Shown: piece after piece, positions 21,357 through 48,500 of the stretch | Position numbering within the stretch: position 1 is the first letter of the stretch | Layout of the letters: each line of letters begins with the position of its first letter | Notes under the pieces: generated by a model | Databases searched by the model: none | What the model was told of the DNA's origin: nothing | Seen by the model: the letters and a program-made list of their open reading frames with translations, nothing else | Source: Curvularia clavata | Lineage: Eukaryota | Assembly: GCA_023920165.1 (NCBI GenBank) | Contig: CP089277.1 | Location: forward strand, 4,340,001 to 4,404,000 | Direction: 5' to 3' | Length of the DNA stretch: 64,000 nt | Translations under genes and position numbers: made by a program

Positions 21357-21778
21357 CTATAAGACCTAGACCTGAATGGCTAAGGGTATTAGGGTAAACA
21401 ATAGTTAGAGCTTCCCGCATAGACCTAAAGTTAATATGCACTATCCTCGATCCTATAATATCTTTGTCTTTTAATTATATATCTACACTATATATTAGAA
21501 ACTGAGGTACTATATAATTAGTATCTAAAACCTAGTCTATACGATTGAGTAGTCTGATAATATTATTATCTAATTCTATTATACATGTGGTAGGAAATAC
21601 AGTATTATGCTCAAATATGATTGCTTTTCTTTATCTGTTTTCGCGTTAGTGTAATGTTCTTGCTTTGTCTAATTTTAGTCTCGTACAGATTCTCTTTGTC
21701 AAAACCATCAGTATTGATGGTAGTATTTACTTTGTCTGTGGGCTGGGCTGAACTTTTGTTTTGATCCTGGGCTATATA

Positions 21779-24700
21779 ATGACAATCCTCGCGTGCCGGG
21801 ACGCCCGGTGTAACGGGACACTTTTTCTTCCGGACGTCCGGCATGCTCACACGATATATGTAAATTGGCCGGTTCAATGTGCATGTATACTCTAGCACTA
21901 GTCCTCCTACTGCATCCCCATCCGACATCAGAGAACGCGTTGCTAACTGTGCTGTCGCTCTTTTTATTAGTGCTGTCGACCAATCCTCTCTAAGAACTCC
22001 CCTGCTCGTTTGCGGCTACGTACATTCGCCAAGAGCTCGGCAGGTCAGAGAGCGAACTGAGAAGGCGAAGATGAAGACTCTCGCCCCAGAAAGTCAATTA
22101 AGGCATGGAGTGTGCAGTCCGGCAGTTTCTCCGCGCGAAAGGTAGAATCGTCACAATGTAGCTGCCCGGCCATGCGTCTTAAGCGAGCTTTCAGCTACAG
22201 TAGCGTGCTGAGACATCTGCAACTCTTACTGCGCACTGTGGCTGGGGGTTGTAGCGCTAGAAGTGATATTTCGGGCTGCTATTATTCCCGACGCTACAAG
22301 TAATCATAGCATAATCTTGAGTTCCCAATCTCCAGTACGCGCAACCCTTATTATGCGAAGTTACTAAGTACTTTAGTATAATAATATACTCTAACTAAAA
22401 CAAACTTGCCATGCTGCTAAATACACTAATAAGGTAAAAGAGGAAGGCAGGTTTACTTGCCCTTGCACAAAGCTATGCATCTAGCTAGATAATTACTTAA
22501 ATACTAGTCGCTTGGCTTCTCCTATGCTTCGGCCTCTCCATCTGAAACTTACTAGTCAAGACTACTTACAAGACAAAAGCACTTCGCTACGGTGTTGGCG
22601 ACATGCTCGGGTAGTAGGGTGGTGCTCTCCAAGGACAAAGCTGTACCCGTCACACGCCCTATTGTACAGATTGAGAGATTCCTTGTAGTCACAGAGCGTC
22701 GCAAGCAGGTGAGCAAGGCAGTACACGCTTTCTAGCGTGTTGAGGTGCTCGGGCCCAAGCACCTTCTCGTATCCTTCCAGCGCTCGTCGATATATCGCTT
22801 CTGCCTCCTCGTACTTGCCCTGGCTCGATAGTACCAACCCAAGGTTGTTGACGCTAGTGAGCGTGTCGGGGTGCTCGCGCCCAAGCACCTTCTCGTATCC
22901 TTCCAGCGCTCGTCGATGCATCGCTTCTGCCTCCTCGTACTTGCCCTGGCTCGATAGCACCGACCCAAGGTTGTTGACGCTGGTGAGCGTGTCGGGGTGC
23001 TTGCTACCTAGTACTCTCCTTCTCGACTCTATCACTTGCATATAGAGCTCTTCAGCTCTCTTGTATTGTCCATCACTCTGCAGAGCTCTAGCGCAATCTT
23101 CTGCAAGATTTGTTCTCTCCTCGTCATCATTCTTCTCACTATGCGACAGTGCATATTGAGCGTGCGGCAGTAGTCGCCTCCATTTACTTCTATTACTGTG
23201 ATCGCTGTTTAGAAACACCTGAAGCAGCTGCGTGACTGCGCGTTGAGTGCATTCATAAAGTCGTCCCTGTATCTGCAGCTGCTCTCGTAAGGATTGGTGC
23301 ACCAATCGATGCACGTCAAATGCTGACTCAGCAGGTCGCCTTGTGACGAGCGCATACTTGTCAAGTATCATGATCGCATCTATACGGGCCTGCGGCGAAG
23401 CTGCCTCGAGCAGATCGAGCGGAATGTCCTTTCGGTCTACGCACGCAGCAAAGTAAAGCTGCTCTATAGCAATAGCGTTGCTCTGCCGGACTTGATCTAT
23501 AGAAAGAGATAGTGTAGCAGCTACAGCCTTTCTTAGACCAGACTCTCCATGCTCGCCTTCACGCAAGTCATTGCTGTACTTGAGAGCTGCTTGGTCGTGG
23601 TCGTTTAGTCGTGCTTGGTACTACTGCACTGTTATATTGCTTGCATTTATGCACGCTGCCGCTTGCGACACTGCTAGAGGCAGGTACGATAGTTCTCTTA
23701 GCAAGTGTATGGCTCCCAGCTGCTCAGCATCGGAGAGCGGCGTTGTTAAACGAGATTGTAACATCCTCAGCGCCGTGTCTGACGCCAGCTCACCTAGCGC
23801 TACTACATCTTGTGGAGCAAGCGTCTTAACCGTGTCGCTTTCTGTAGTTGTGAAGATAACAGAACATAGCTTAGAGTGCGGCAGAAAGTCCGCTAAGCCT
23901 GTAGCTTCTGCTGTTGGCGAGCCACCATGCTGGACAGTTGTGCCCTCGACGTTGTCGAAGATTAGCAAACACTGCTGCGTACTTAGCTTTGCTATGCAAC
24001 GTTTCACAATCTGCTCTATGTCTGCCTGGTCACCATCACAACCAGGAACGCCGAGCTTCTGTGCAACACTAATATAGGACTGATCGAGACTGTCTTTGCC
24101 GCTCGCATCGATCCAGAAGACTGAACAATCCTTATATTTCTCTAGCGTTCTGTGTGCAACCTCGAGCGCGAGCTGCGATTTACCTATTCCGCCAGACCCG
24201 ACTATTGCAAGCGTTAAGGTAGTCTGTGTGTTGCTGAAGAGCTTCGCTTCTAGTTCCGCGAGCTGTATTTCGCGACCCACAAAAGACTTGTTGCGCGCGA
24301 ACGGAATGATCGACGGTGCGCGGCCGGCTCTCTCCACTTCAGCCTGCAGTCTTTCTAACGCACTCTCCCTTCCTTCGCCATAGGTTGCAGGCATAGAGAC
24401 GCCAAGAAGTCCCAGCAGGCAGTATACTATATCTTCTGTCTCGGTCGTTTCGCGACCGCTAACCCATCGCATGCGCTCAGATGTGCTGAACTGGTTGAGA
24501 GGATGGTTGCGCAGCGCTGCAAGCGGAATCCCGGTAATGCTGTGCAGTAGTCGGTTGAGAGAGGCTTTGTCGCCTATATGTTGCCCTTCGCACGAGGAGA
24601 ACTCCACAGATGCTGGCGCTATCAGCTCCTGCAGCGTCCATCCGCGAGTGAACCACTTGCTCTGCCGAAAGGATACATTCCGGTCACTGCATAAGACAGA

Positions 24701-25934
24701 CTCTGCCGAGGTCGAGGTCGACGCCGACACATCTGACAAGAAAACGTAGCATCGTGCCGCATTCTTGTACCACTGGAACATCGAGTTGATCGCCTTAGAG
24801 CGCTCACTGTTATTCCATCTATCGATACAGCATGTGTCAATCCAGAAGTACTGCAGCCCGTCCTGAGCTGCTTGTTCGGCACAGAACCGTAGCTTCTGGT
24901 AGCCTTCCTCTTTCTTTTTGTAGTTTCCATTAAATATGTCTTCAATAAGAATCTCAGAGTCGCCCCATCGGTGCGATAGAATAGCGTAGGGCGGGATCGG
25001 CTTGTCGCGAAAGTCTGTCAGGATCAGTCTGCCCGGTGCGTCTAAATGGAGGAGCCGCATGGCGCTTGCAGCTCGGACTTTAGTCTAAAGAACTAGAGGC
25101 ATGAACAACTTTTGTGGTAGATGAGTGAGAGCAGAATGTTAGCAGGAGTAGAATGGCATCTTTACGATAAAGCAGAGAAGGCAGTCTGGTGAGGCAGTGC
25201 ACACAGCCGGGCTGAAGATGCTGCTGGCTGCATTAAGCGCCCAGCGTCCTGCACTGCCTCCACTCACCATTTACACTAAGGCAGTGTTTGCCTTGCAAAC
25301 TCATGGCAGAAGAGTGTATATATAGGTAAGGTGCTAGTAACATAGCTAACTAATCTATAAAGGTTATCGTTATAGCGTCTCGCTTGGCTCTATGCGACGG
25401 GGGCGGCTGCCTACACGGCCCGGGAATAAGAGCTGTCTAAGGTCAGGCGATGAGTGAGAGCCGCAGCTCTCAGCCACAGCGCGCAACCCCTCGCAGATAT
25501 CTCAGCACGCTACCGCTGCCAAACGCCGCTAAAGTCGCACGGCCGGCTTGTCGCGTTTTGACGATGTTGTCGCCAGCGCGGAGAAACTGCCGGGATTCAC
25601 ACTCCTTACGTTAAGTCGATTCTTTAAGTGTGCAGTCTTGATCTTTGCCATCTTAGCTTTCTTTCTAGTCTACCGAACTATGTAGAATTTTATGCTGTCG
25701 CGAATAAACAAGGGTGTATTAGAGGTGAGTCGATAAACGGCACTGACAGAACGAGCGACAGCATAGCCAACAACACGCTTTTTGGCGTCGGAGGGTGATA
25801 CGCTGGGAGAGCAAGAGCTGTAAAATTGATACGAATTGTGTTTGTCTATTTTTGAGTACGTTACACGCAACCCGAGCATCCGGAAGAAAAGGTGTCCCGT
25901 CACACCGTGCGTCCCGGCACGCGAGGATTGACAT
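21779..25934. mobile_element. Non-autonomous long-TIR element 1 carrying a HET-NB-ARC-TPR gene
   Basis: Left end atgacaatcctcgcgtgccgggacgcccggtgtaacgggacac matches the reverse complement of the right end (gtgtcccgtcacaccgtgcgtcccggcacgcgaggattgacat). Similarity runs ~500 bp inward (21779-22290 vs 25420-25934). TA on both sides. No transposase inside. Confidence 0.8.
22562..25060 (-). pseudogene. NLR-like HET-NB-ARC-TPR gene with a single premature stop (TAG at 23621-23623)
   Basis: HET domain (YAILSHRW, YFWIDTCCID, WFTRGWTLQELIAP), Walker A GSGGIGKS, Walker B LLIFDNV and 42-aa TPR repeats (LGxEHPDTLTSVNNL). The two track ORFs are in the same frame across one TAG. Confidence 0.9.
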
Positions 25935-26091
25935 TAGTATAGTAAATAATATATAGTTATTATTCTCGCTTTATCTATCGTTGCATACGTAGTTATTAAT
26001 AAAACTTAGATTCTAGTGAAAGCTGAACCCTGCACTTGAGCACTCAATTTACAGTCTATACACGATGATACAAACAATCATTCAGCCCTCT

Positions 26092-26950: not shown

Positions 26951-27348
26951 GGTCTTCTGTGGCTCTTCAAAGATGTGTATCCAGTTATTGTCGTACAAAT
27001 CTTGACTACCTAGGCATAGTAGATCCTAAGTAGAACGTCGGAAATCCAGCTATCGTAAGTTGCAAAACCGCCCTCACCCTTTGTGCAAGCGACGATTTGA
27101 AACGACCCCTGTCAGCCTAGGGTCTCCCTTGCTAGTCTCCGCTAATCATAGACAGATAAGAGATACTAGCCCTAAGATAGCTAGCTCGTGACTATCGCCC
27201 ACGCTTACATGTAAAATAGGTCTATTGCAATACGTTAAGCAAGATACACAGCATAACGCTGGACTACAATATAGACCGACAGTTCTACGATTTATCCTTA
27301 TTAGGTAGTTAGCAAGTCGTTCAGCACGTACGGCAGATCAACACTAAG

Positions 27349-30300
27349 CTACTCAGCTTCCCACTGTTCTAGGGCAGCTAAAGAAGACTGAGCATCAGGG
27401 TGGCTGGCTTTCAGCACTCGCTGACGCTGCTGTACGCACTGGCTCATTAAGCCTACAGCATCTTCTGTCCGACCCTGTGCTTTCCATGTAAATGCCAGGT
27501 TGTGCATGCTGCTCAGCGTGTGTGGATGGTCTGCTCCAAGCTTCGTCTCGCGAGTCTCCATCACCTGCACGTCCAGCGTCTCGGCCTCGTCCCACCGGCC
27601 TTGCTTTCTGTATGTCGACGCCAGGTTGTGCATGCTAGTTAGCGTGTCTGGGTGGTCTGCTCCAAGCTTTATCTTGCGAGTCTTTATCACCTGTATAAAC
27701 AGCGCCTCAGCCTCGTTCCATCGGCCTTGGTTCCAGTATGTCGACGCCAGGTTGTGCATACTGCTTAGCGTAGAGGGATGGTCTGCTCTAAGCTTCGTCT
27801 TGCGAGTCTCCATCACCTGCATGTCTAGCGCCTCGGCCTCGTCCCACCGGCCTTGGTTCCTATATGTCGACGCCAGATTGTGCATGCTAGTTAGCGTATC
27901 TGGGTGGTCTGCTCCAAGCTTCGTCTTATAAGTCTCCATCACCTGTACGTCCAGCGCCTCGGCCTCGTTCCATCGGCCTTGGTTCCTGTATATCGACGCC
28001 AGATTGTGCATGCTGCTCAGCGTAGAGGGATGGTCTGCTCCAAGCTTCGTCTTGCGAGTCTCCATCACCTGCACGTCCAGCGCCTTAGCATCGTCCCACC
28101 GGCCTTGGTTCGTGTATGTCAACGCCAGGTTGTGCATACTAGTTAGCGTGTCTGGGTGGTCTGCTCCGAGCTTTATCTTGCGAGTCTCCATCACCTGCAC
28201 AAATAGCGCCTCAGCCTCGTCCCACCAGCCTTGGTTCCAGTATGTCGACGCCAGGTTGTGCATGCTAGTCAGCGTGTCTGGGTGGTCTGCTCCAAGCTTC
28301 GTCTTGTAAGTCTCCATCACCTGCACTTCCAGCGTCTTGGCCTCGTCCCACCGGCCTTGCTTTCTGTATGTCGACGCCAGATTGGCTATACTAGTTAGCG
28401 TGTCTGGATGGTCTGCTCCAAGCTTCGTCTTATAAGTCTCCATCACCTGTACGTCCAGCGCCTCGGCCTCGTTCCATCGGCCTTGGTTCCTGTATATCGA
28501 CGCCAGATTGTGCATGCTGCTCAGCGTAGAGGGATGGTCTGCTCCAAGCTTTGTCTTGCTTGTCTCCATCACCTGCACGTCCAGCGCCTTAGCATCGTCC
28601 CACCGGCCTTGGTTCGTGTATGTCAACGCCAGGTTGTGCATGCTGCTCAGCGTGTGTGGATGGTCTGCTCCAAGCTTCGTCTTGTAAGTCTCCATCACCT
28701 GCACAAACAGCGTCTCGGCCTCGTCCCACCGGCCTTGCTTTCTGTATATCGACGCTAGGTTGTGCATGCTAGTCAGTGTGTCTGGGTGGTCTGCTCTAAG
28801 CTTCATCTTGCGAGTCTCCATCACCTGCACGTCCAGCGCCTCGGCCTCGTTCCATCGGCCTTGGTTCGTGTATGTCGACGCCAGGTTGCCTATGCTAGTC
28901 AGTGTATCTGGGTGGTCTGCTCCAAGCTTCGTCTTGCAAGTCTCTATCGCCTGTACTTCTAGCACCTCGGCCTCGTCCCACCGGCCTTGCTTTCTATATG
29001 TTGACGCCAGGTTGGCTATGCTAGTCAGCGTAGAGGGATGGTCTGCTCCGAGCTTTATCTTGCGAGTCTCCATCACCTGCACAAACAGCGTCTCAGCCTC
29101 GTCCCATCGGCCTTGGTTCCAGTATGTCGACGCTAGGTTGGCCATGCTGGTCAGCGTAAAGAGATGGTCTGCTCCAAGCTTTATCTTGCGAGTCTCCATC
29201 ACCTGCACTTCCAGCGTCTCAGCCTCATCCCACCGGCCTTGCTTTCTATATGTCGACGCCAGGTTAGCTATACTGGTTAGTGTAGAAGGATGGTCTGCTC
29301 CGAGCTTTGTCTTGCTCGTCTCCATCACCTGCACAAACAGCGTCTCAGCCTCATCCCACCGGCCTTGGCTCGTGTATGCCGACGCCAGGTTGGCCATGCT
29401 AGTTAGCGTAAAGAGATGGTCCGCTCTAAGCTTCGTCTTGTAAGTCTCCATCACCTGCACAAACAGCGCCTCAGCCTCGTCCCATCGGCCTTGGTTCCAG
29501 TATGTCGACGCCAGGTTGGCCATGCTGGTCAGCGTGTGTGGATGGTCTGCTCCGAACTTCGTCTTGCTCGTCTCCATCACCTGCACCTCTAGCATCTCCG
29601 CATTAGACCATAGCCCTCCAAGTTTGTATGCTAATCCGACCATAGCTATGCTCTGTAGAGTCTCCATATGCTCTTCACCTAGCACTCTCTTCCGCGCCTC
29701 CATTGCCTTTATAGCGAGCATTTTAGCATCAGTAACATTTCCTATCCTCTCTGCAAACCACGCCGCACGGTAGAGTACCATCGCCCAATCTACTGTTGAA
29801 GATTCGTCTTTAGGTTGCTGTTCTACGGCGGCCTTGGCATGCGCATAGAGTGCTCGACAAACTGCCCAGTTCTCGTACTCTCCTGTTGGAAACGCTGCGT
29901 GTAGATTGCTAATAAACTGCTGCTTCCACCGCTCGAGCTTGTTATTATCCTCGAGCCATTTCCGCATTGCTAGTTGCACTAGCGCATGCATCTCAAAGCT
30001 CGTGCCAGTAGTATCGACATAAATGAAGCAGAAGTTTCGCAGCACTGCTACGGCGTCTTCGAATTCGTCGTCACCTGCACCAGACTGGGAAGTATCGCTA
30101 TCTGACTCATCGTCACTGTCTGCCTTTATCTGGCCCGTCTGGGCTTCTCCTCGCTCAGCGTGAGGCTGAAGCAGGGCTGCTGGAATACCTTGTCGGTCAA
30201 AGAAGCTCATCAGCGAGAGCAGGTCTGCTGCGGCTGGCTGCGTCTGTCGTATATACTCAAATGAGATTAGCCATGTAACAGCAATCGCACTCTTCGCTTC

Positions 30301-31324
30301 CCAGTCGCGCCGGAGCTGGCTGGCATCGTGGGCAAGGAGACGTAGCCGCTTGCGGTCGCTCTTCCTAAACTCTTCGAGGTACTTTGCCACCGAGTATAGC
30401 GGTGCTCTTCGTGAGATGTACGCTGCAGCTTGCACAATAGCGAGCGGTATATACTCGAGCTCCACTGCGAGCTCAGCGACATTGCTTTTGTCACTCTGCG
30501 CTCCCAGCTTCTTGCTAAATAGCGCTAACGCCTGCACCTCGTCCATCGGCTCTACATCAAGCACGTCGCGTCCTTCAACTAGCTTCAGCGCCGCGTCCTT
30601 ATTCCGCGTCGTTATGAGGATCGAGCCGTGCTCGCAGTGGGGGAGGTACTCGCGCAGTAGTCTGCCAGCGCCTGTTGCGTTAGCAGCCTGGCCGCCTCTA
30701 TCAGCTCGAACATCAAGAAGGCGAGCGTCGTCAACGTTGTCTAGCACAAGCAGCCACCGCTGCTTGCAGTCGCATAGCCAGTCGTGCACCAGCTTGAAGA
30801 TATTCGCCTGCGGGTCTCGCCGCCCAGCGATCTTAGCCCGGTCGGCGATATCGCGGAAGCTCTGCTCGAACCGGGCCGCGTTGCTGGCGTGCATCCAGAA
30901 CACCCAAGTCTCGGGCGACCGCTCGCGTATGCGGTATGCATATTCGATGGCGAGCTGCGACTTGCTTCTCTGCTATTAGCGTGTGATACTAGATGAGCAA
31001 GCGTTTGCCTACCCTACGCCGCCGAGGCCGACGAGTGCAGCACGCGCGCCCGGCACAGCGCATATCTGGTCAACCTTGTCGAGTGTGGTGCCGCGCTCGA
31101 CGAAGTCGGTATCGCGGGCGAACGGTATAAGGATAGATGGGAGTGGTGGAGTCTCGCGTCGTTCTAAGGCGAGAGTGTGGTTAGTGCGTGTTCGGGCGCT
31201 GAGTCTCCGTAGGGTAGTCCCGCAACTTACCAGGTGGTAGGTAGAACGTAGCGCTCGCCGGGCCGTTGATAATACCAGCCTGGAAGCCGGCGTTCGAGTC
31301 GCTAAACGAGATGGCGGAGGCCAT
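27349..31324 (-). CDS. NLR with N-terminal PP (pseudo-palindromic, RHIM-like) amyloid motif, NB-ARC domain and ~18 TPR repeats (PNT1-like); exons 31324-31231, 31163-31013, 30964-27349
   Basis: The spliced N-terminus is MASAISFSDSNAGFQAGIINGPASATFYLPPERRETPPLPS…ALVGLGGVGKSQLAIEY. GT-AG introns at 31164-31230 and 30965-31012, the second splitting Walker A. Walker B WLLVLDNVDD, IPLAIVQAAAYI, FEMHALVQ, then 42-aa TPRs. Confidence 0.9.
27400..29690 (-). repeat. Highly conserved 126-bp tandem repeat array encoding TPRs
   Basis: About 18 units of …LGADHPxTLxSMxNLAxTYxNQGRWDEAExLxVQVMETxKTK, near-identical at DNA level. Confidence 0.9.
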
Positions 31325-31571
31325 GATACTTTAGCAGAAGTGTGGTGTACATACAGTGGCGTCTGCTGCGAGGTCTCAGCTGGGCTTCAGCCGGGCTACC
31401 TGCGCCGCTGGCTTGCAGGACTCTCGGCCCCTACTTTGCAACTTTATAGCTACAGAGCCTCTTTGCTTTACGCCTCAGCTAAGCACACATCTTCTTTAAT
31501 CTCCTTATTTATACTGTTAACTCTACAGTCGCCTCTCCACTCTTTTTTCTTTAATTACTACCAAACACGAG

Positions 31572-32230
31572 ATGACAGATCCTCTCAGCATTACTGCCAG
31601 CGTTATAAGTATTACCGTACTAGCCTTGCACGGCATACGCTTGCTCATAGAAGACCTGCAGCTGCTCAAGGAGGCCCCTAAAACTGTCAAGCGCCTTTTA
31701 GAAGACGTAAAGTCTGTCGAAACATCGGTCAGATTACTTCAAAGTGTCGGAGAGAGAGAATAGAATCTTCTTGGTGCAAGACCAAATTCGGAGCAGACCA
31801 TTCACGAACGCTAACCAGCATGAACAACCCATCAGTTACCTACAAGCATCAAGGTCTGTGGGATGACGCCGAGATGCTAGATATGCAGGTAATGGAGACG
31901 AGCAAGGCCAAGCTCGGAGCAGATCATCCAGATACGCTGACCAGCATGTCCAACCTGGCGTCGGCATACTGGGGCCAAGGCCGGTGGGACGAGGCTGAGA
32001 CGCTGTTTGTGTAGGTGATGGAGACGAGCAAGACGAAGCTCGGAGCAGACTATCTAGACACGCTGGCCAGCATGTACAACTTGGCATTTGCATGGAAAGC
32101 ACAAGGTCGGATAGCAGATGCTGTAGGCTTAATGAGCCGGTGTTTACAGGGCCGTCGGCAAGTACTAAAAGCTAGCCATACGGACGTTCAGTCTTCGTTG
32201 ATGGTTTTAGAATAGTGGAAGGCAGGATAG
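31572..32230 (+). pseudogene. Truncated HeLo-like (HELL/HELLP-type) effector joined out of frame to a TPR fragment
   Basis: MTDPLSITASVISITVLALHGIRLLIEDLQLLKEAPKTVKRLLEDVKSVE…ERE*NLLGA is a HeLo-like N-terminus. From ~31778 the sequence switches to TPR units and a C-terminus similar to the neighbouring NLR (AFAWKAQGRIADAVGLMS), with stops. Confidence 0.75.
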
Positions 32231-34337
32231 GTTGGTGTTAGTTTACTACATAAGCTGAAGCAGTCGCTGCCTAGTCAGCGTAGAACGCAGACCTGGCAAT
32301 TTATTGTATCCGTGCCGAGGCTTAGCTGACGTAGCTTAGTAATAAGTTATGCTTTGGCACGGATAGCTTTTTGTTTTGCGTGTAGATCAATGTATTGTCA
32401 TGATTAGACCTGTTTTGCATACCAGAGTGGTCTCTGGTACCGAGCTAGCTGTCTTAGGGTTAGTATATTTTAGATCTCTGTGATTGGCGGAGCTAAGCAA
32501 GGGGTACCCTAGGTCTGCAGGGGTCTTTCCAAATCGTCGCTTGCGCAAAGGGTGAGGGCGGTTTTGCAACTTACTGTATAGCAAGGTAACGACAGCATGA
32601 ATAAAGATCCTAGAACAAAGAGAGTTGAGATGAAGACGGAAAGCTATTACACAGAAGAAATCTTATATGCTGAATATAAATCGGGTGCTGTCTTATTCTA
32701 TCACATAATCAGACAACTATTCATAATACTTGACTATCTATGGTTAATACACATCAGTAAGCTGCACACATCACAATCTACATCCTGGTTGTTTGACGCA
32801 GGCCTGCAAGGGATCGTCCATACCGAAGCCGCAGTAATTAGACGATCATAACAACAGACCATGAAAGTCCTTCCGCCCTTCGTTCTGTACAATTGCATCG
32901 ACTTATAGCTTTCCTCTAGGCATCGAAATACCCGTCTTCCAACACCCCCGCTTAATGATAGCTTGAAACCTGACGCGTGGCAGTAGACTTGCTATAGGTA
33001 TCATATGTAGTTGCTGCTACAAAATAATAGCCTATCTTACGGTGGGCTAATGCAGTTTTTACCAGAGGGTCTTGCTTCTTGGCTGGTGACCACTGCTTTA
33101 TCTTTGACACAACTCCATCTGGCCTAGCGTAACAAGCAGGAACACTTTGAAGTGTGATGCTTGTTACGCTAGTCTCTCTCTGGTTAGGAGAGAATCTTGC
33201 CACTTAGAACTTACAAACGAGTAACGTCCGTCCCTGTGGGTCAAATATCCCTGCGCAACGAATCACCAACATTCCCCAAGCATCTTACGCCCAAGCCGCA
33301 GAGGCGCTTAGACATAATCACACGTTTATAAACTTTCTAAGCCTACTTCTATCTATTACAGGCCTTGAATAGCAAAATTACAGCAATTTAGGGTGTGTAT
33401 ACGAATCTTTCTTGTTAAGCGTAAAAGGCGCGATAACGATACACCCCTGTTCAGTCCTCTATAGAAGCAGATCTAGCTTATTCGGAAAGTTTATATTATG
33501 TATAATATGTCGAAGACGCTATGTGTGTTATATCAAGACATGCAGCATCTGTTCAGATGCACTCCGAGTTTGTCCGACTTGATATGCCAGTTCTCCGCGT
33601 TTAGCGAGAGGATTTAGAACGCTTACATAGCAGGATTGAGAACGCTTAGCGGCCTACGATGTACACCTGCGCTATGCCAAAACTGCTGAAGCTGTGGCGC
33701 AAAGCTCTAGAAGCTTCTACCCTGTACTGCGCAAGCGCGCAGCTAACGCATGCGCCGGTGTTTGCATGGAGAGCGCCTGTAGCTAGGATATACTAGATCA
33801 CTTTCTCTAGCTCTGTACAATGGGGTCTCGCGGCGTTGAGTATGATAGATAGAAAGGCGAATACAAATCGAGTTCAAATCTAGATGTTATCCACAAGTGT
33901 TGCATTTGCGCGACTGCTTTCTTATCTTGTTCTGCGTCGTAACGGGCAAGCTTTGAGTGCGTCGGTGCTTAGACCTCTACTAACAGCGCCAAGGGCCTCA
34001 TTACTCCAGCTCTCGATGCAGACGCGTTTCAGCCTTGCGAGCAGTGCACGGAGCATGCATGGCATGCCTTACCCCGCCTGCGGGTTCACACAGCCTTCAC
34101 CACCAAGTCAAGGATACAGCGAAAGCCGGCAGCCTCAGCTCGCGACATATTGACACATCACAGGATCCTGCTGGTACCTGAGCTAATGCACCTGCTCGTC
34201 GTCCTCTCTGTATGCTTACTATCTATCGGTAGCAGGAAAGCAGCTAACAAGCAAGCGCCCGCACTATCAGGCTACTAAGTTCAGCCTTTCGAGTCCTGTT
34301 CTTATCGCATATATCTACCATACACCCACACGAATCT

Positions 34338-37300
34338 ATGCGGCTCTTACAGTACAGTGAAAGCGGGGAGCTTAGCATCCATAGCTTCGACGATGGCGAC
34401 ATACCTCCCTACGCAATACTTTCACACACCTGGGGTGCAGATGGCGACGAGGTGACCTTTGCAGACCTCCAGACGGGCGGTGGCAAGATAAAGCTGGGCT
34501 ATGAGAAGATCCTCTTCTGTGGAAAACAAGCGCGGCGCGACAACCTCCAGTACTTCTGGATCGACACGTGCTGCATCGACAAGGCCAATAAGGCTGAACT
34601 CGCTTTCTCTATCCGATCGATGTTTCGCTGGTACCGCGATGCAGCTCGGTGTTATGTATACCTGTCGGATGTCTCTACTCAACCTCTACTAGCTACCCAA
34701 GACCACCGTGATTCACAATGGCTTTTCTGGATCTGGATACTCTCTATCCTCTATACTATGTCAAGATGGTACGGCAGCACGATACAGCGCTACTTCTATT
34801 CGCGCTATGTTCCATGCACTCCAGTTGGTAACGATCTTGTGCGCAGCACGCAGATGCCTAAGTTCACGCTTAAAAAAAGCAGATGGTTCACCCGCGGATG
34901 GACACTACAGGAGCTTCTTGCACCATCTATAGTAGAGTTCTTCTCTAAGGAAGGGACCAAACTTGGCGATAAGTTATTGCTGGCAAAAGAAGTACGTGAA
35001 GTCACAGGTATCCCTAGTTCAGCGCTGCAGGGTGAACCGTTGTCCAATTTTGATGTTTACGAACGCGTCACGTGGATTGAGCATCGCACTACAACAATTC
35101 CAGCAGATCGCGCATATTCTCTAATGGGTATTCTTGGTGTCAGCTTGTCCCCAATCGATGGCGAGAATCTAGCTGAAGCAATGAAACGGGTTCTAGATGA
35201 GGTTGATAAGCAGAATAAGTGCCTCCAAGACTTGCGTCCTAGCAACCCGCGCGATGATAAGAAGCGGATTGAGGAGACTAAGGGCGGGCTGCTTGCAGGC
35301 GCTTACCGTTGGGTTCTTGACAACGACACCTTTCAGCAGTGGCAGCAAGATCCAGAGAGCCGACTATTATGGGTAAAAGGTGATCCTGGCAAAGGCAAGA
35401 CGATGCTGCTGTGCGGCATTATCGACGAACTACAAAACCTTACGCCGAAACCTACCCTTGTTTCATACTTTTTTTGCCAGGCGACCGACTCGCGTATTAA
35501 TAGTGCCTCAGCTGTGCTGCGGGGATTGTTGTATATGCTCGTGGACCAGCAACCATCACTTACAGTTCATATTCGCAAGAAGCACGATCGCGTAGGCAAA
35601 AGTTTATTTGAGGACGCGAATGCCTGGGTTGCTCTAATAGAGATCTTCGCCGACGTGCTGCGAGACACAGGCTTGATCACAACGTACCTAATTATTGATG
35701 CGCTCGATGAATGCATGACTGATCAGGTAAAGCTACTTAGCTTTATTGCAGAGCAGTCATCTGCGTGCTCTCACGTTAAGTGGATCGTGTCTAGCCGCAA
35801 CTGGCCAACTATCGAGGAACAACTAAAACGTGCAGAACGCAAAACGCCACTAAGCCTTGAGCTGAACGCTGAGTCAGTTGCAGCAGCAGTCAGGGTCTTC
35901 ATCCAGCAGAAGTCGTGTCAGCTAGCGCAAGAGAAGCGCTACACGCCAGAGGTACACGACGCAGTGCTCCAGCACTTGACATCAAACGCGAACGACACCT
36001 TCCTCTGGGTTGCGTTGGTATGCCAAGACCTCAAAGCAACGCCGAAGTGGGACGTGCTCGAAAAGCTAGCCCAGTTCCCGCCTAGTTTAGACTTACTTTA
36101 CAGGCAGATGCTAGATCAGATACGCAAGTCTAGTAGTGCTCGAAGATGTCTGCGGGTGCTCGCAGTGACTACCGTCCTATATCGACCCGTCGCAGTCGCT
36201 GAGCTAGTTGTGCTTACTAAGCAACTTGCTGACCTTGTTGATGACCTAGAGTCGGTGCGAGAGATTATTGGTCTTTGCGGATCGTTCCTTACGCTGCGCG
36301 ACGACACAGTCTATTTCGTACATCAGTCAGCTAAGGACTTCCTTATCACACAAGCGTCAAATGAGGTCTTTCCTAACGGTGCAGAGTGTGTGCATCAAGA
36401 TATCTTTGCGAAGTCACTTACCGTTCTGCAAAAGACACTCGATAGAGATTTGTATAACCTTCAAGCGCCTGGATATCCTATAGAAGACGTTAGGCTGCCT
36501 CTTCTTGATCCTTTAGCCGTGTCGCGCTATCCATGTATCTACTGGATCGACCACTTCTACGACTCGAAACATATGACACAAGCACATAGTGCTGCTAATC
36601 AAGAAGATACTAGGACTATAGAGACATTCTTTAGGCAGAGATACCTCTACTGGCTAGAAGCGCTCAGCTTGTGCAGAAGCATAGCGACAGGGGTAGTCTC
36701 GATAACAAAGCTTTGGGATCTAGTCCAAGTACGGCTCACGTGATCGTATATGCCTGCAGTCTTTTCAACGCAGTTGCTGACATGCACAGGGGCTTAAGGA
36801 CACAGATGCATTAACTGAGACTGTCTATGATGCACGAAGATTCGTTATGTATCACAAAGAAGCGATTGAGAACTATCCTCTACAAGCGTATGCATCTGCT
36901 CTGCTGTTTAGTCCAGCAGATAGTCTAACAAGAAGGCTATTTCGGCATGAAGAGCCGGCCGGCATAGGAGTCAAGCCAGCAATGAGCAGCAGCTGGAGCG
37001 CCTGTCTGCAGACGCTCGAGGGCCATAGCAGTCCTGTGAGCTTGGTAGCATTCTCACACGACTCAAGCCAGCTCGCGTCAGCGTCATACGACTGCACTAT
37101 CAAGATATGGGACACAAGCAGCGGGACATGCCTACAGACACTTAAAGGTCATATCAATAATGTTATGTCCGTGGCCTTCTCGCACGACTCGAGCCGGCTA
37201 GCGTCAGCATCAAGCGACAAGACTATCAAGATCTGGGACCTAAGCAGTAAAACGTGTCTGCATACACTTAAGGGCCACAGTAGTACTATTAGCTCAGTAG

Positions 37301-38952
37301 CCTTCTCGCACGACTCAAGCCAGCTCGCGTCAGCGTCCAGCGACAAGACTGTCAAGATCTGGGACGCGAGCAGTGGAACACGCCTGCGCACATTTAAGGG
37401 CCATAGCAGTACTATCAGCTTAGTAGCCTTCTCACACGACTCGAACCAGCTAGCGTCAGCATCATACGATAGAACTATTAAGATCTGGAACACGAGCAGT
37501 AGCATTTGTCTGCAGACGCTCAAGGGCCATAGTAATTGGGTTAACTCATTAGCCTTCTCGCACGATTCGAGCCGGCTAGCGTCAGCTTCAAGTGATAGAA
37601 CTGCCAAAATCTGGGACACAAGCAGCGGGACATGCCTACAGACACTCAAAGGTCATATCAATAATATTATGTCTGTGGCCTTCTCGCACGACTCGAGCCG
37701 GCTAGCGTCAGCATCAAGCGACAAGACTATCAAGATCTGGGACCTAAGCAGTAAAACGTGTCTGCATACACTTAAGGGCCACAGTAGTACTATTAGCTCA
37801 GTAGCCTTCTCGCACGACTCAAGCCAGCTCGCGTCAGCGTCCAGCGACAAGACTGTCAAGATCTGGGACGCGAGCAGCGGGACACGCCTGAACACAATCG
37901 ATGGCCATAGCGATGCTGTTACGTTACTAGGCTTCTCACACGACTCGACCCGGCTAGCTTCAGCGTCATATGACAGGACTGTTAAGATATGGGATACGAG
38001 CAGCGGGACATGTCTGCAGACGCTTGAAGGCCATGGAGATGATATTAGCTCCGTAGGCTTCTCGCATGACTCGACCCAGCTTGCGTCAGCATCATACGAT
38101 AGCTTGGTTAGGATATGGAACGCGAGCAGCGGGATATGTCTGCACACACTTAAAGGGCATAAAGATTATGTTAGCTCAGTAGCCTTCTCACACAATTCGA
38201 GCCAGCTCGCGTCAGCGTCTAGTGACAAGACTGTCAAGATCTGGGACGTAAGTAGCGGGATATGTCTGCACACACTCGATGGCCATAGCGACGCTATTAG
38301 GTTAGTAGTCTTCTCACACGACTCAATCTGGCTAGCATCAGCGTCCAGCGACAAGACTGTCAAAATCTGGGACACAAGCAGCGGGACGTGTCTGCACACA
38401 CTTGATGGCCATAGCGATGCTATTAGGTCAGTAGCCTTCTCACACGATTCGATCCGGCTAGCTTCAGCGTCAAGCGATAGAACTATTAAGATATGGGACG
38501 TGAGTAGCGGGATATATCTATATACGCTTAAGGGGCATAAAAGTTATATTAGCTCAGTAGCCTTCTCGCGCAACTCGAGCCGGCTAGCGTCAGCTTCAAA
38601 GGACGAGACTGTCAAGATCTGGGGCGTGAGCAGCGGAACGTGTCTGCACACCCTTAACATCAGCATGAGTCTTTCGAGGCTTTCTTTTGGCTCCACTGAT
38701 ACCGTCCTCCACACAGAAATAGGCACTGTCATTATCCCATCTTCCCAGGTTTCTAGCAGCGCAGACGTTGCAGTATCAAAACCACAGTACCAGAATGTCA
38801 GTCTAAGTCCAGATGGCGTCTGGGTGATGCGCGCTGGAGTCAAAAGATTAAGGATACCGTCTGAGTATCGGCCGTCATGCTCAGCCGTGAGTGGAGCTCT
38901 GGTAGGTATGGGAGTAGGCTCAGGAAAGGTTTGGCTTTGTCAGGCGATTTAG
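34338..38952 (+). CDS. HET-NACHT-WD40 NLR (HNWD / HET-E-like); exons 34338-36728 and 36790-38952, 1517 aa
   Basis: HET motifs (YAILSHTW, FWIDTCCID, WFTRGWTLQELLAP), NACHT Walker A GDPGKGKT, Walker B LIIDALDEC and FVHQSAKDFL. A GT-AG intron at 36729-36789 joins the two ORFs in frame. 13 WD40 repeats. Confidence 0.93.
37000..38655 (+). repeat. 126-bp tandem repeats encoding 13 highly conserved WD40 units
   Basis: Units of GH…VAFSHDSxxLASASxDxTxKIWDxSSGTCLxTL; repeats 2-3 are nearly identical to repeats 6-7. Confidence 0.9.
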
Positions 38953-41358
38953 GCAAGCAACAGTAGATAAATAGAAGACCTCTCTAAGCCCTTGTGTCTC
39001 TATACTTATTGAGAATGTGGGGGCTATACGATCCTCATTATGTATGTATATAATAGGAACCTGGAGAAGTCTATATGTACTCAATCGGTTTCTAAGAATA
39101 GGCAGCAACCGACTGCGCGCGTAAGCGGTGGCCAGACGAAGCAATCTTTGCGCCACAGCTCGATCTGTTTTGGTATAGCGTACGTGTACATTGCAGGCCG
39201 CTAACCTTTCAGTACTGGTTGTGTCAGCACGCTAAGTCTTCTCGGTTTATGCGATGGACTAGCACATCACACCAGAACAACTCGGAGAGCACCTGGAAAG
39301 TAGCTGCACATATCGTAAGAGTGGTACCGTATTTTTTAGCTAATTAAATATTTCTTAGGGGCTCTGAAGAATCAAGCGATAGTGCTATATGTAAAATAGC
39401 AGGGGTATTTTGCTGTTATAGCTTCTATGCAAAAGAAAAGAGGCTTAAGAACATAAGCTACAACGCTTTAATATTATTATATTGAGCCTAAGGTAAATAG
39501 AGATAGACACAAAGAATATCAGCTCATTGACCTAACTCTACATAATTGAGAAGAGTGGGCATAACATAGTTAATCAATGTTCGTGGTTCGTTGCGGGGGG
39601 ATGTTCGACCCACACGGACGGACGTTATTCAATTTTTTGAAATAATCGTCTCAAAGGACTGGAAACACACCCGCCAATGGCCGCAACGGTCTCATCTCTC
39701 AAGTGAACCACCCCAGAAACGCCCGGCATGCTACAATTGGCGCTACTACATACTTATAGATTACTAAACAGCCTTGGCCACTACAGCGCTTGCCAGAATC
39801 TTGGATAAATTGCGTCCTTCTATGCGGAGAATAATATTAGATAGTGAATCTATGATACACTTTTGCTAAGAATACTAGAATTTATACAATAACCGCCCTT
39901 CGTTTATATATCTACTAATTTGGTTCTATGTCTTTTATATTGCTTGAACTGTGTCTGCTTTTAAGCCCTCTAGACTTTCGACGCAGGACGCTCCCCTCGT
40001 TTCAGGTTTTTCTATTATTGCATTCTCTCGCTCTGCTAATTTTAACAATAGCTGCCTTTACACTTCTAAGCTTCCCTCAATTTCATGTATATTATGCTGA
40101 TTGTTCCCAACAATCCGTTGCCTGACATGACCTTTGTTGTTAAATACTCTGCCTTAGTACCTCTCCTGCTCTTTCTCGCGACAATAGCTATTGTTTTTGA
40201 TGAAATCGTAGAAAGTCTTCTCTGTTCTCCAAGCAGTAGGCATATTTGGATACCTCTAATTAGGTCGGTATAAGATATCTCTAAATACCCTAAGCTTTAG
40301 ACGTAAGTCTTTGCAAATTGCGCCAATTTTACCTTTTACTCTAACGTACGCATATTTATAGGCGTGAAGTCATGATATGACTCATGTAAGAATCGATCTA
40401 ACGACATATAGCTTGATTTTTTATTGTCGGTCTGAGCACCAGGGGTAGCAAGCAAGTAAGTCGCAGCACTCATCTATGCCCCTTTGCGGAAGTTCAAAAG
40501 AACCTAAACTGTTGTACGCAGCTTGCATATAATTATATCATGCTATGTAAAACTGGCTACATTAAAACGCATAAAATAGCACTAAAGAATTTATAAGTTC
40601 CCCTTGACAAAGGCCAACTTAATCTCAAAACAACTCTTTTCCATAACGATTTTTCTTCTCTATAGCCCGCAATTTGCTACCTATCTCTTCACAATATATA
40701 TACCGTTGTATCTGCCTTTTCACCTCTAGCACGCATAGATATCCCAATAGATTCTCTAACTCAGTACTTACTTATACTTTGAAAATTGAGAAGCAGAAGA
40801 CAGTGCGTAACAGACTCCACGAAAAGACTTAAATCAAAGAGTAATTAGGAATGGCATTTTGGGTCGACAATCGCCCTATATAACTTCTAAGCACGATAAG
40901 GTGTTGATAACTTTTAGTTTCTTTTGAGAGTACGTTGGACCGCGAAACCTCTAAACACCCTTTCCTAGTTGGTGGAAACCCTGGTAAGCTGGAACTAGAC
41001 AATCAAATACAGCATCGTGCCAGAATTTTTGATGACCCTGCGCTTCTATGAGTTGATTCCGGCCCACTAAGATTTTTGCTGCAAACGGAGATAACTTACA
41101 TGCATCTTAGTGCTAAAAGATTTTAGTTCTTTTGACAGTACATTGGACCGTGAAAATCCCTACATATTCCTGGTGGTATGCTATATTATGATACTTACTT
41201 CTAGCTGTCTTAGAATTATGGCGCATTAGAGCTATTAAGTGTGTCTAGCTAAGCATACGATCTAACACTAAAGTCAACTTTCTGATCTTTGTAAGTAGTT
41301 CTGTGCTAATATCGTATATTTATACCATAAATTAGAAGACTGTTACCCTAAAACACTA

Positions 41359-42800
41359 TGCGCGCTATATATCTCGTGAGTTAAATAATGATAGTAATTC
41401 TCCGTCTAACAAGAGACAGAAGTTTGCTGCTAATAAGCCGCTTCTGGATCAGACACAAGCTGAAATAAGAGAAGAAGAGGTATGGTGTGTAGCTTAACTA
41501 AGATTCTGCTAACTCCTAGCAGCTTATCTCGATAGCAAAAGCTTTTCTGTACCGACTTGCAAGGGCGGAACCCGAATATCTAGAATACATTTGGCCAAAG
41601 CTTCTACTATACAGACTGTCTTTTAGTAGCCGCTTGGATTTCTCTATACAAGCAGCGGATTGTGAGCACTTATTGCATCTAACCGTTTTTGATACCTGAT
41701 TGTCCTCTGATTCCCTTCCTACTGGCCGCTCTCAACTTGATATAGATAGAAATTAGGAGATAGGTGCTTCAGTAACCCACGACTTCTATGCCCAATTAAG
41801 GGCTTCTGCATGCGCTCCAAGTCCGTCCTTTTTACCTTCCTACATAAGTTCTGCTTCGATATCGCCGTCACCACCGGCATCCTCCCTTAGCCTAATACCA
41901 GAACATGAGCCTATATAGCGGGAGGGATCCCCGAAGTCCCTTTACGCTCGACGCATGCAGCGACTAGATAATCGTCACCCTAAAGTTCAGAACTATATAG
42001 CAAGCATTATTTGGCTCGGTGATCACTTTCTTCAGGAAGATATAGGGAAGTTCTTGAGACTATTCTGCCGCAGATGGAGTTAGACAGACTTTGGCTATCT
42101 TCCCGTTCCAAAGAGTATAGCTGGCGAAGATTTAAGAATTCAAAGCTTATTCAGAAGGTATCACCATGCCGAAACCTTCAGGCGTCGTTCGGGTATAGAC
42201 TGTTTAAAATTTCGATTCTTGAGAATCTTACTTTATCACGATTTCGAAGAACTTTGCATTACTATTAAGAATAATCTAGAAAGATACAGACCACTCTCCC
42301 GTAGTCAGGATGCAGCCACTATTGCTACTGATAAATTTATCGAAGGGCTTGGTAAAGCTTCTGGCGATGTTATTATACGAACAGAATATCAGCTGCGAGA
42401 GAGCTTTCGAAAGCACAAGGCGATCGGCAGAAGGTGGTCTATAATAGCATCACACTTTGGCCTTAGTATCCTATTAACGTGCAGCCATGAGTTGGAGGCT
42501 AAAATGTATAATATCTATAAGTCTTAGGTATTGTTTTATCTAATATATCTAGCAATGATTATAACTTTCCCGAACGAAGGTTCCCAGCCTTGCTTACATA
42601 CATAACCAATACATATCCTAGAGGAAGTGAGTTGAGTCGGAAACTCGACCCTTTCGTTTGCTCGATAATCAAAGGAGTTTCGCCACCTTTATAGCTAACA
42701 GCAGCATCTTTGAACGTTCTTAGCTGCTATAGGCAAGAGAACGAGATTAAAGATATTAATCTTTGTAAGGAGTGGCTACGGGTAGAACTGCATAACGGGT
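41359..42800 (+). pseudogene. Heavily RIP-degraded multi-exon gene of unknown family
   Basis: Protein-like fragments (…RESFRKHKAIGRRWSIIASHFGLSILLTCS…), intron-like gt…ctaa…ag segments and many TAA/TAG stops. Confidence 0.3.
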
Positions 42801-45545: not shown

Positions 45546-48500
45546 CTACCTGCGGCCATCGTCAAGGAGAGATCCTTCTTTGTTACTTGTAACATTATCC
45601 CCCCTCTTAGGGTTATCGTCCCGATACCCTGGATTATCGTTTTCCCGTGCGTCGCTTGGCGCTGGTGGCTTGGATAAGTATCGAGGTATGCCCGTTGTGT
45701 CGTAGGCGCTTCTTCCTCCATGCCTTCCTAACCATGCCCAAGGTTCAACCAACTCGTCGTGTCCGTAACCAGAATTCGACTCTTCAGCGTCGGGCCCGCG
45801 CTGACCGTATAAGGGAACAAGGCCGCGAGATGACTTTTCGGTGTAAACGTTGTGAAGAGAAGAATCTTCGTTGTTTCGTGGACACAGCATCTGGTCGCTG
45901 CGCTGGTTGTATTTCGGTTTCCGCTGAGTGTAGCCTTTTTGTTTCTGAGGAAGAGTGGGAGAAGGTCGAGGCTGAGAAGCGGCAAAAGCGTCTCGAGATT
46001 GCTCGTGCTGAGGAGCGCCAGCTTCAGGCTGCGATGGAGACTGCGCGACTTCGGCGCGAGCTCCTAGAGGTTGAGGCGCGAGAGCGAGAATTTGCTGATC
46101 GAGATCATGCCATCTTGAGCCTTCAGGATCGTGCGCAAGAGCAGGCCGAGGGGAGCTCCGCCCCTGGTACGGACCATCCGACAACCGAACCATCGCTACC
46201 CGGACTGTCGACTGACTTGGGCTGGTTACAGGCTGACGTTTCTTACGACCCTTTTTCACTTGATTATTTCCTTTCCCTCGAGGGTCCGTCCCTCGCTTCC
46301 GTGGATGTTTCCGATGGTACTCGCGTACCAGTGACCTGCAGTTCGTCAAGTTTCCTTCAGGTTCCCAAGTGTTGTGGCTATCTGGCCATCCTTCCCACCT
46401 GACCAAGTACTTCCACTGACCGCCTATTTTCTGTAGGTCCTTGATTTCTTCGACCGTATATTCGTCGTCCTCGAGCTCGATATCGTCCATTAGCTCGGCT
46501 TCTGGGGGTGCAGGTTCTAGCAGTTTCTTGTGAAAAACGTTGTGTATGCGCATGCCTGGTGGTAGCCGTAGTTTATAGTTTACGGGTCCCATTTTCTCTA
46601 GGATTTCGAATGGTCCTAATCGGAGATTGTCCAATTTCTTGCTTGGTCGTTTAGTTTTCAAGTTTTGTCGTGACAAGAAAACTCTGTCCCCCTTTTTAAA
46701 GGTTGGTCCCTCAATCCTTAGCTTATTCGCAGCTTTGGACGTCGTGAGGTTCCTATGAGCGATGTTCCTGCTCAATTCTTTATGCAATTCGCGCATTAGT
46801 CGGGCTTTATCGTCTGCTCCGACTGCGATACTTTCAATATCCTTTGGATCTCGATGAGCAACCGGCTCATATCCGTAGTTCGCGTAGTGTGGCGAGTACT
46901 TCGTTGTCGCCGATCTTGAACTATTGTAAGCCAATTGTGCTGTCGGCAAGAGTTCAACCCAGTTGTCCTGCAGCTTGTTGGCGTAAAATCGCAGATACTG
47001 TTCTAGCGTTTGGTTTGTTCGTTCCGTTTGTCCGTCGGTTTCTGGGTGGAAGCTAGTCGATAGCTTCTTCTTAACTCCCAGTTTTGCTAAGAACGTTGAC
47101 CAGTATTTCGATGTGAACAGCTTATCTCTGTCCGTTATGAATTCTTCGGGCATCCCGTGCTCTGATATTAGTGCTTTGGAAACTTCGTACGCGCATTCCT
47201 CTGCCGTAATTGTTTCTTCTGTGGGCACAAACTTTGCCCCTTTGGTCTGTCGACACATTATGACCAAAATGGTGTCGCAGAGTCGAGCCGATCCTGGCTC
47301 TAACGATTTCGGGAGCTTCACTATGAAGTCCATCGTTACGCTGCTCCATGGTCGCGTTGGTGGCGGTAAGGGTTGTAACAGGCCATAGGGCTTATGTCTT
47401 TTGGGCTTGTTCTGGTGACATGCCACACAGTTGCCTACAACTTCCTGCACCTGCGCCCTCAAGCGCGGCATATAAAACGCCTTATTCAGTCGCCTGACCA
47501 TTTCGTCGATGCTTGCATGTCCGTATTCTCGTGACTCATGCAGTTCTTTGATGAGATCTTTTCTCATGTGCGTGGGTACGTAGGGTCGACTCTCGTTCCG
47601 CGGCTCACCTTTGTTCTGTAGCCCGTTGAGTTCCTTTTGTCCGTCCAATGGTACCCATTCATTCGCTTTTTGTTGCCATTGCTGTTGCAACGTTTCCACT
47701 TGCTCGGCTATCTTGGCTAATCTAGCCAGATCCGGCTGGTTGTACCTCAAGCTGCCGTCGGGCATTCTCTTGAGTACTGCGTCGTGTGGCTCTTTGTGGC
47801 CTTTTCCGCGTAAATCGGATCTTCGGCTCAGAGCATCCGCGGCTCCGTTGAGCGATCCTGCTCGATGCGTGATTTTGAAGTCAAACTGAGCTAACATCTC
47901 AGCATATCGGACTTGTCTTCGGTTGAGTTTCTTCGTTGTCATAAAACTCGTGAGGTTCTGATGATCGGTAAAAACCTCGATCGTGTGTGGAAGTCCTAAC
48001 AGGTATACTTCCCATTGTTCAAAGGCATCGACTACTCCAAGTAGTTCCTTATCGTGAACATCGTAGTTCAACTCTGCTTCGTCGAACTTTCTGGAATGGT
48101 AGAACACGGGTCTCCATTTCCCATCTGGGCACTGCTGTGACAATACAGCTCCGAGTGCGTAATCAGACGCGTCAGTCTCGAGTCTGGTTGGTCGTTGAGG
48201 ATCGTACATCTCTAGTACGGGTGCCTCTAGGAACGTCTGCTTGAGCTTGTCGAAAGCTTTCTGTTGTTCCTGTTTCCATCTGAAACCTACTTCCTTCTTC
48301 GTGATCTCCGTAAGGGGTGCTGTGATCTTCGAATAATCTTTTATGAACTTCCGGTAGTAGTTCGCTAGCCCTAGGAAGGACTGAACATCCTTAACTGTTT
48401 TGGGCGTTTTCCAATCCCGTACAGCCTGTACCTTTTTTGGGTTCATTTTCACTCCTTCGGTCGAGATGATGAATCCGAGGAATTCCGTTTCCTGCGTGTG

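Follow-up and report, generated by a model that had tools for sequence, protein, structure and literature searches.

How does a complete receptor gene of a fungus come to lie between long inverted arms that end like a DNA transposon, and does it travel with them? The question is raised by a 64-kb stretch of Curvularia clavata (64,000 nucleotides; assembly GCA_023920165.1, contig CP089277.1, positions 4,340,001 to 4,404,000 of the forward strand), which as a whole is called the window here. Positions 33224-39625 of the window hold a unit of 6,402 bp, named the NLR element below after the NOD-like receptor (NLR) gene that it encloses. Fungi have large repertoires of NLR genes, which are distributed patchily among species and tied to transposon-rich regions, and to our knowledge it is largely unknown how these genes move. 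Our analysis makes it probable that the NLR element is a transposase-deleted transposon of the pogo clade, which carries an intact HET-NACHT-WD40 gene and was relocated as a whole one or more times.

Ends and arms of the NLR element

Transposons of the Fot1/pogo family are known from filamentous fungi under names such as Fot1, Pot2, and Tan1/Vader. A sequence-only reading of the window had claimed inverted termini of the form TA/ACGT at 33224 and 39625, and direct inspection bears this out: the ends read TA (33222-33223) / ACGTCCGTCC... and ...GGACGGACGT / TA (39626-39627). The 21-mer TAACGTCCGTCCSTGTGGGTC, searched with up to three mismatches, has two sites in the 64 kb, which are the two ends of the NLR element in inverted orientation (two matches in 0 of 100 shuffles). 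By an inverted-repeat scan, the tips pair at 33219-33293 / 39556-39630 (75 nt, 79%) and an inner pair lies at 33640-33704 / 39146-39210 (65 nt, 83%). Comparison of the left and right arms by blastn gave a tip match of 55 nt (85.5%, E 3e-12) and a second match of 165 nt at 33541-33704 / 39146-39308 (72.7%, E 7e-20). The second inverted block proposed at 33580-33745 / 39110-39270 is thus real, and its position was slightly off. Homology between the arms peters out at about 495-525 nt from the tip.

The same reading had expected identity along the arms to peak at the termini. Between left and right arms, 43/53 positions are identical at the tip (81%), 193/365 in the middle (53%), 57/75 in the inner block at about 421-495 nt from the tip (76%), and 42/100 past the arm limits (42%). 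The tip exceeds the middle as predicted (Fisher p 5e-5), and the inner block forms a second peak. A third arm was available from an independent locus, L003, described below. In pairwise comparison of the left, right, and L003 arms, tips are 79-91% identical, inner blocks 69-84%, and middle parts 52-62% (tip against mid-arm, p 9e-6 to 1e-4). Private changes number 106 in the left arm, 70 in the right arm, and 69 in the L003 arm, so the three arms are about equidistant. Because tip and inner block are nevertheless kept above the middle, the pattern of conservation points to functional constraint on the ends rather than recent common descent, as had been suspected. Repeat-induced point mutation was considered as the source of arm divergence, and no clear bias was found (C>T plus G>A against T>C plus A>G private changes: 30/27 left, 27/15 right, 17/21 L003).

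With TA at both ends and terminal inverted repeats (TIRs) conserved above background, the NLR element is classed on its structure as a non-autonomous DNA transposon (Tc1/mariner superfamily) from a pogo/Fot1-type clade with long arms. The inner block may serve as a promoter or leader, or as a second binding site; in L003 about 100 nt separate it from the transposase ATG downstream.

A motif, CTGTGGSKCRAA, was seen in the tip (33234-33245) and, in the same orientation, in the best-kept part of the inner block (33688-33701), with counterparts in the right arm. Layouts of inverted repeats with internal direct repeats (IR/DR) occur in some Tc1-like elements. As an IR/DR-like signal the repeat was set aside, since by our own estimate its 9/12 matches are close to what chance would yield over so many comparisons, and it stands as an idea only.

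Transposases of the clade

The sequence-only reading had proposed to look for autonomous elements whose TIRs read ACGTCCGTCC. We searched metagenome contigs with the tip pattern and obtained three loci, L001, L002, and L003. The first was rejected as a chance tip match in a bacterial integrase-like context. In L002, unrelated flanks enclose a 190-nt piece of arm that is 73% identical to the right arm. L003 reads in order a host BCS1-like AAA gene, TA, tip, arm, and an open reading frame (ORF) of 562 codons, whose product matches DDE_1 (E 3e-30) and HTH_Tnp_Tc5 (E 2e-6). Its tip agrees with the right tip of the NLR element at 48/53 positions (91%), and its arm is 68.7% identical to the right arm over 486 nt and 86% identical to the inner block of the left arm. 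By these features, L003 is classed as an autonomous pogo/Fot1-type element with ACGTCCGTCC ends. The search with the L003-type transposase found 1,074 relatives (E <= 1e-3, 7,999 candidates scored), and the named ones are mostly from Pleosporales.

The NLR element retains the scar of a transposase gene just inside its left arm. Window positions 33766-33817 match L003 positions 3495-3546 at 46/52 nt and encode WRAPVARIY followed by a stop codon. The C-terminus W[RKQ]AP[VIL]A..MY, taken as a strict pattern, occurs in 69/121 clade proteins (the L003 transposase and 120 relatives), and most of the others have close variants. In the six frames of the window this motif is found once, at 33767-33796; tblastn detected no further transposase similarity within the NLR element. 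Directly behind the scar, and on its strand, begins the NLR gene with 520 nt of upstream sequence, which takes up the space as far as the right arm (about 33818-39100). Since the last 9-14 transposase codons and the stop are kept just inside the left arm, the transposase ORF has been deleted, with the NLR gene downstream of its former place, and the NLR element descends from a transposase-bearing element by an internal deletion of about 1.75 kb. A pogo-family mobiliser had been suggested from the ends; the common tip and arm of L003, its DDE_1/HTH_Tnp_Tc5 transposase, and the C-terminal codons kept in the NLR element all support that suggestion.

The L003 transposase was also used to search for long proteins (8,000 candidates scored, E <= 1e-3). 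Two of the two long proteins that match it are gene models that join the transposase to an NLR, transposase first, although so few long matches are weak evidence. In P0242 (Cladosporium fusiforme), a near-full transposase (45% identical, residues 70-573) is followed by NB-ARC, DUF7779, and TPR, and, over 515 residues, the NLR part has 44% identity with the NLR of element B, a neighbour of the NLR element in the window. In P0243 (Pseudogymnoascus australis), a transposase with its catalytic core deleted is followed by NACHT_N, NACHT, and 14 WD40 repeats.

Movement of the unit and rival explanations

Public sequencing runs were selected with the query 32575-42574, and four runs were mapped onto 21200-41199 with a cut-off of 88% identity. 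Two of them bear on movement: X2, a second sample under the window's organism label, and X3, whose label names another organism, referred to as organism B. Organism B holds the whole NLR unit at about 98% identity without either flank, and the break falls exactly at TA plus tip. One X3 contig of 9,266 nt matches the window from 34836 down to 33221 (28 differences in about 1,618 nt) and then runs into 7.6 kb unlike the 21200-41199 stretch, while others match 34813-37023 (30 differences/2,211 nt) and 37856-39260 (25/1,405 nt). X3 depth is 21-54 within the NLR element, 5 at 32539-33205, and 0 at 39876-41199. The arms of L002 and L003 likewise sit in unrelated flanks, so that, together with organism B, copies were found at different sites. 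Depth is also raised at the right tip, to 281 in X2 against 35-60 nearby and to 76 in X3 against about 25, indicating that the tip is multi-copy. On the three points that the sequence-only reading had named as able to overturn it, the results are in its favour: arm divergence is non-uniform, a related TIR family is present, and the element does not keep one position across organisms.

The organism-B copy has about 49 extra nt at 33741/33742, exactly at the junction of the transposase deletion. The window and X3 copies may carry different deletion end points.

Several observations weigh against a mobile unit, or against parts of the case for one. In X2, contigs identical to the window run through the left junction (0 differences over 32093-34297) and also extend over the right flank, so the insertion is at the same site with an identical junction and no polymorphism was seen within the species. 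Among the 15 joints listed, none bridges 33223 to 39626, as an empty site would. The left tip departs at several positions from the consensus formed by the remaining three, which could impair recognition. Divergence of the X3 copy is about even, at 11/522 in the arm (2.1%) and 30/2211 in coding sequence (1.4%), and so gives no sign of purifying selection on the cargo. The TA beside the tips of L002 and L003 was built into the search pattern and thus is not independent evidence. L003 has one end on its contig and belongs to an organism other than the window's; its arm is only 69% identical, and it is therefore a relative and not the cognate element. Finally, the P0242 and P0243 models give same-orientation adjacency of transposase and NLR, like that proposed below for the ancestor, not common TIRs.

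The first three of these observations are what would be expected of a fossil, that is, a pogo-type shell with an NLR that has long been immobile, the organism-B copy being owed to introgression, to horizontal transfer of a larger segment, or to rearrangement of the flanks. The arms are indeed old, since the left arm is as distant from the right arm as from L003 by the private changes given above. A larger segment would have brought flanks with it, however, and the X3 match stops exactly at TA plus tip with both flanks missing; moreover, both X2 and X3 show several copies of the tip, and tips are still constrained across the arms. We regard a fossil as unlikely. Further from the evidence is an accidental composite, in which a resident NLR gene became enclosed between two independent, opposite insertions or fragments of a pogo-type element. 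Such an accident would be in keeping with a region crowded with transposons and NLR genes, and with arms that are only 53-81% alike. However, each arm has an outer tip only (the window has two copies of the tip 21-mer instead of four), the transposase scar is one-sided and oriented as in a single element, and the arms-plus-gene unit recurs in organism B. Two neighbouring NLR genes have a like layout, and transposases adjoin NLR genes in two other fungi, so that we give a composite very little weight. An inverted segmental duplication around the NLR gene (head-to-head duplication and then decay, with no transposon) is suggested by element B, where a head-to-head NLR remnant is seen and the arms take in the TPR 3' end as an inverted copy (76%/464 nt), but it is scarcely credible for the NLR element, whose arms are free of NLR coding sequence, contain the transposase scar, and are homologous to the arms of transposase-bearing L003, and of L002, in unrelated flanks.

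If the NLR element is a deletion derivative that moves, a transposase of the same clade encoded elsewhere would bind its conserved tips, and perhaps the inner block too, excise the unit, and reinsert it at a TA. Its ancestor would, in the simplest history, have been a two-gene element with the order TIR-transposase-NLR-TIR. Carriage on a transposon would give the NLR gene changes in copy number, new positions, and possibly transfer between lineages.

A bolder proposal, which we hold only tentatively and think somewhat doubtful, is that a pogo/Fot1 clade in at least Dothideomycetes and Leotiomycetes has an NLR as its regular second gene downstream of the transposase. The NLR would then be the element's own equipment, not random cargo, and units such as the NLR element would be transposase-deleted offspring of that clade. 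If this were true, the NLR could steer heterokaryon formation or cell death so as to favour the element's spread or exclude competitors, and the transposon clade would be one of the chief drivers of fungal NLR repertoires, which are patchy and turn over fast.

Cargo, neighbouring elements, and known systems

The cargo has the HET-NACHT-WD40 (HNWD) architecture, with all three parts found. Pfam assigns HET PF06985 to residues 25-192 (E 2.5e-16), NPHP3_N (E 3.6e-38) and NACHT (E 5.1e-15) follow, and 13 WD40 stretches lie C-terminally. The WD40 array has 12 copies in register at 126-nt spacing, and identity to the reference copy is 72-90% in windows of 300 nt. An uninterrupted gene of 1517 aa had been claimed. 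This holds for the spliced product, which has 1517 codons and is otherwise uninterrupted, and fails for a single ORF, because a 61-nt intron separates the underlying ORFs (34338..36743 and 36847..38952). By homology with Podospora HET-E/D/R, the NLR would act as a cell-death receptor, with the WD40 repeats as sensor, NACHT as switch, and HET as death domain.

The closest public protein is P0122 (Curvularia clavata, 1639 residues), and the next-best relatives are at most 68% identical; those named HET-E, HET-D, HET-R, or HNWD are 41-50% identical to the NLR. The P0122 model is chimeric: its first approximately 127 residues come from a truncated NLR remnant of element B, and the remainder is the HET-NACHT-WD40 gene. 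It spans window positions 31568-38949 and so bridges two transposon ends. NLR-transposon units thus yield chimeric gene models, from two elements in P0122 and from transposase plus NLR in P0242 and P0243, which can mislead surveys of NLR domain architecture.

The HET domain contains a hydrophobic insert of 39-49 residues (...WLFWIWILSILYT...) at 34692-34840. It is missing from most homologues, kept in P0123 (the 68%-identical protein), and partly kept in P0134. A second, in-frame intron of 117 nt (34708-34824) was ruled out here, since its residues are kept in P0123 and P0122 reads through; the insert is thus coding sequence, and it may be a membrane-associating segment of the death domain.

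Table 1. Features of the NLR element and of neighbouring transposons, with positions in the window.
Feature	Position	Strand	Remarks
Degraded third Fot1-like copy	13755-14900		beside the two intact ones
Fot1-like element 1	14941-16795		546-aa transposase; TIRs 66 nt, 94%
Fot1-like element 2	16911-18771		552-aa transposase; TIRs 68 nt, 100%
Element A	21779..25934	-	HET-NB-ARC-TPR gene; TA flanks; ~470-bp inverted arms, 68.6% over 481 nt
Element B	27058..32571	-	TA flanks; 170-nt inverted ends (82%), tip AGTTGCAAAACC...; NB-ARC-TPR NLR and truncated NLR remnant, head to head
TA, target-site duplication, left copy	33222..33223	.	read directly; organism-B contig matches through TA, then diverges
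Left TIR tip (ACGTCCGTCCCTGTGGGTC...)	33224..33276	+	81% to right tip, 79% to L003 tip
Left arm, ~520 bp	33224..33745	+	homologous to right arm and to arm upstream of L003 transposase
Inner conserved block, left arm (core 33640-33704)	33541..33704	+	72.7%/165 nt to right arm; 85.7%/77 nt to L003; 76-84% in segment comparison
Transposase scar: last ~14 codons and stop (...APVFAWRAPVARIY, stop 33794-33796) and ~21 nt downstream	33752..33817	+	L003 match; clade C-terminal motif
NLR upstream region, start of cargo	33818..34337	+	L003 similarity stops at 33817; no ORF or family match seen; presumed promoter and 5' untranslated region of the NLR gene
NLR exon 1, 797 codons: HET, NACHT/NPHP3_N, winged-helix region	34338..36728	+	100% to P0122 over 99% of length
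Intron, 61 nt, GTACGG...CACAG, phase 0, GT..AG	36729..36789	+	splice also in public model P0122
NLR exon 2, 720 codons and stop: WD40 beta-propeller repeats	36790..38952	+	126-bp units, array ~37003-38691
Right arm, ~520 bp; inner block 39146-39308, tip 39573-39625	39100..39625	-	68.7%/486 nt to L003 arm
TA, target-site duplication, right copy	39626..39627	.	read directly

A scan of the whole window for inverted repeats brought out further elements with TA flanks to the left of the NLR element (Table 1), two of them around NLR genes. Element A resembles it in layout, and its gene has one in-frame stop at 23621-23623. Relatedness of tips was scored by anchored, ungapped comparison over 45 positions against shuffles. 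The tip of element A, a diverged form of the ACGTCCGTCC tip, agrees with that of the NLR element at 20-22/45 positions (about 12 expected), a score reached by 10-111 of 20,000 shuffles, and an X2 paralogue of the right arm of element A ends in an intact ...GGACGGACGT/TA (loose end at 25921). By the related tips and this paralogue, element A and the NLR element belong to one broad TIR family, but the NLRs that they carry differ in architecture, with 39% identity between the HET domains. One X2 contig joins 21835 to 25895 (a single contig, whose short side has 23 letters); element A may thus have a short derivative that arose by deletion.

Element B encloses two NLR sequences. In its NB-ARC-TPR gene, the reading frame of the Walker A exon (31009-31386) differs from that of the main ORF (27349-30972), and the truncated NLR remnant lies at about 31568-32215. 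Its arms reach into an inverted copy of the 3' TPR repeats (31776-32239 against 27340-27803, 76%/464 nt). In the anchored test, the element B tip was within the range of shuffles (9-15/45) against the tips of the NLR element, element A, and the Fot1 copies of the window.

The two intact Fot1-like elements are nearly tandem, with TA flanks and a direct repeat inside the TIRs (TACAAGCGAG...), and they do begin TA/ACGT, as had been read. The 100%-identical TIRs of one suggest recent activity. The tips of the window Fot1 copies have ACGT alone in common with that of the NLR element (13-15/45, not above shuffles), and the L003 transposase is 27-31% identical to the window's Fot1-like transposases. 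Because of these two differences, the window Fot1 copies are probably not the mobilisers of the NLR element.

Elsewhere in the window, Ty3/gypsy-type retrotransposons lie at 45546-51937 and 55467-60574, with long open gag and pol, protease, reverse transcriptase, RNase H, integrase, and chromodomain. At 3-7283, 10268-11950, and 63267-63998 are a large fragment of a nonribosomal peptide synthetase in which a methyltransferase domain is embedded, a gene for an O-methyltransferase, and one that is OrsD-like. The cluster of NLR transposons thus sits among genes of secondary metabolism.

Movement of NLR genes has so far been attributed to other kinds of element. Published work points to giant Starships (PMC9156397), and the accessible part of a second source cites Starships alone as NLR carriers (PMC13449251). 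A 2018 genome paper reports 42 HET genes close to repeats, which is proximity only (PMC6034849), and a preprint on ToxB describes a Helitron-like element. Our literature search, which covered full texts and few subscription journals, found no paper on a pogo/Fot1 or other small TIR element that encloses an NLR, and the tip sequence used as a text term returned primer coincidences only. An NLR gene in a cut-and-paste transposon that lacks a transposase suggests that fungi can copy and move receptors on small elements. A single-gene, pogo-type vehicle of 4-6 kb, together with an identified transposase clade, would be a concrete mechanism for duplication, relocation, and possible transfer between lineages of cell-death receptors.

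Starships are giant elements with a DUF3435 tyrosine recombinase as "captain", and their conserved cargo includes NLRs with HET and NACHT (PMC9156397). The NLR element resembles them as a fungal mobile element with NLR cargo, and it differs in being 6.4 kb long, with one gene, TA flanks, TIRs, and DDE-transposase relatives. The family scan found no DUF3435 match in the 18 window ORFs of at least 200 aa, and the captain of a larger enclosing element could lie outside the window. Closer in form is ToxhAT, a hAT-like element of about 14 kb that carries the ToxA effector in Pleosporales (PMC6737239). As far as the accessible account of ToxhAT goes, both are transposase-less, TIR-bounded elements of Dothideomycetes with a complete host-interaction gene, present in more than one species. 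The NLR element is set apart by its pogo type, its TA flanks, its immune-receptor cargo, and the autonomous relative and transposase scar identified for it.

Pack-MULE and other Pack-TYPE elements of plants carry mostly gene fragments, are of Mutator or CACTA type, and make 9-bp or 3-bp duplications. Like them, the NLR element is a non-autonomous, long-armed TIR shell around host-derived sequence; unlike them, it holds a whole intact gene, belongs to the pogo superfamily, and is flanked by TA. It also differs from a miniature inverted-repeat transposable element, in that its interior is neither empty nor shrunken and contains a host-type gene of 4.6 kb that is complete and has an upstream region of its own.

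The cargo is comparable to het-e, het-d, and het-r of Podospora anserina (PMC13449251), with which it has in common the HET-NACHT-WD40 architecture and tandem WD40 units of 42 residues. Compared with those genes, the NLR is known here from sequence alone, and its repeat windows are 72-90% identical. The vehicle agrees with Fot1/pogo elements in its TA flanks, its inverted ends beginning with ACGT, and a relative with DDE_1 and a Tc5/CENP-B-type helix-turn-helix, its own transposase having been lost. Unlike the Fot1 copies of the window, whose TIRs are about 66 bp, it has arms of about 520 bp with two conserved blocks.

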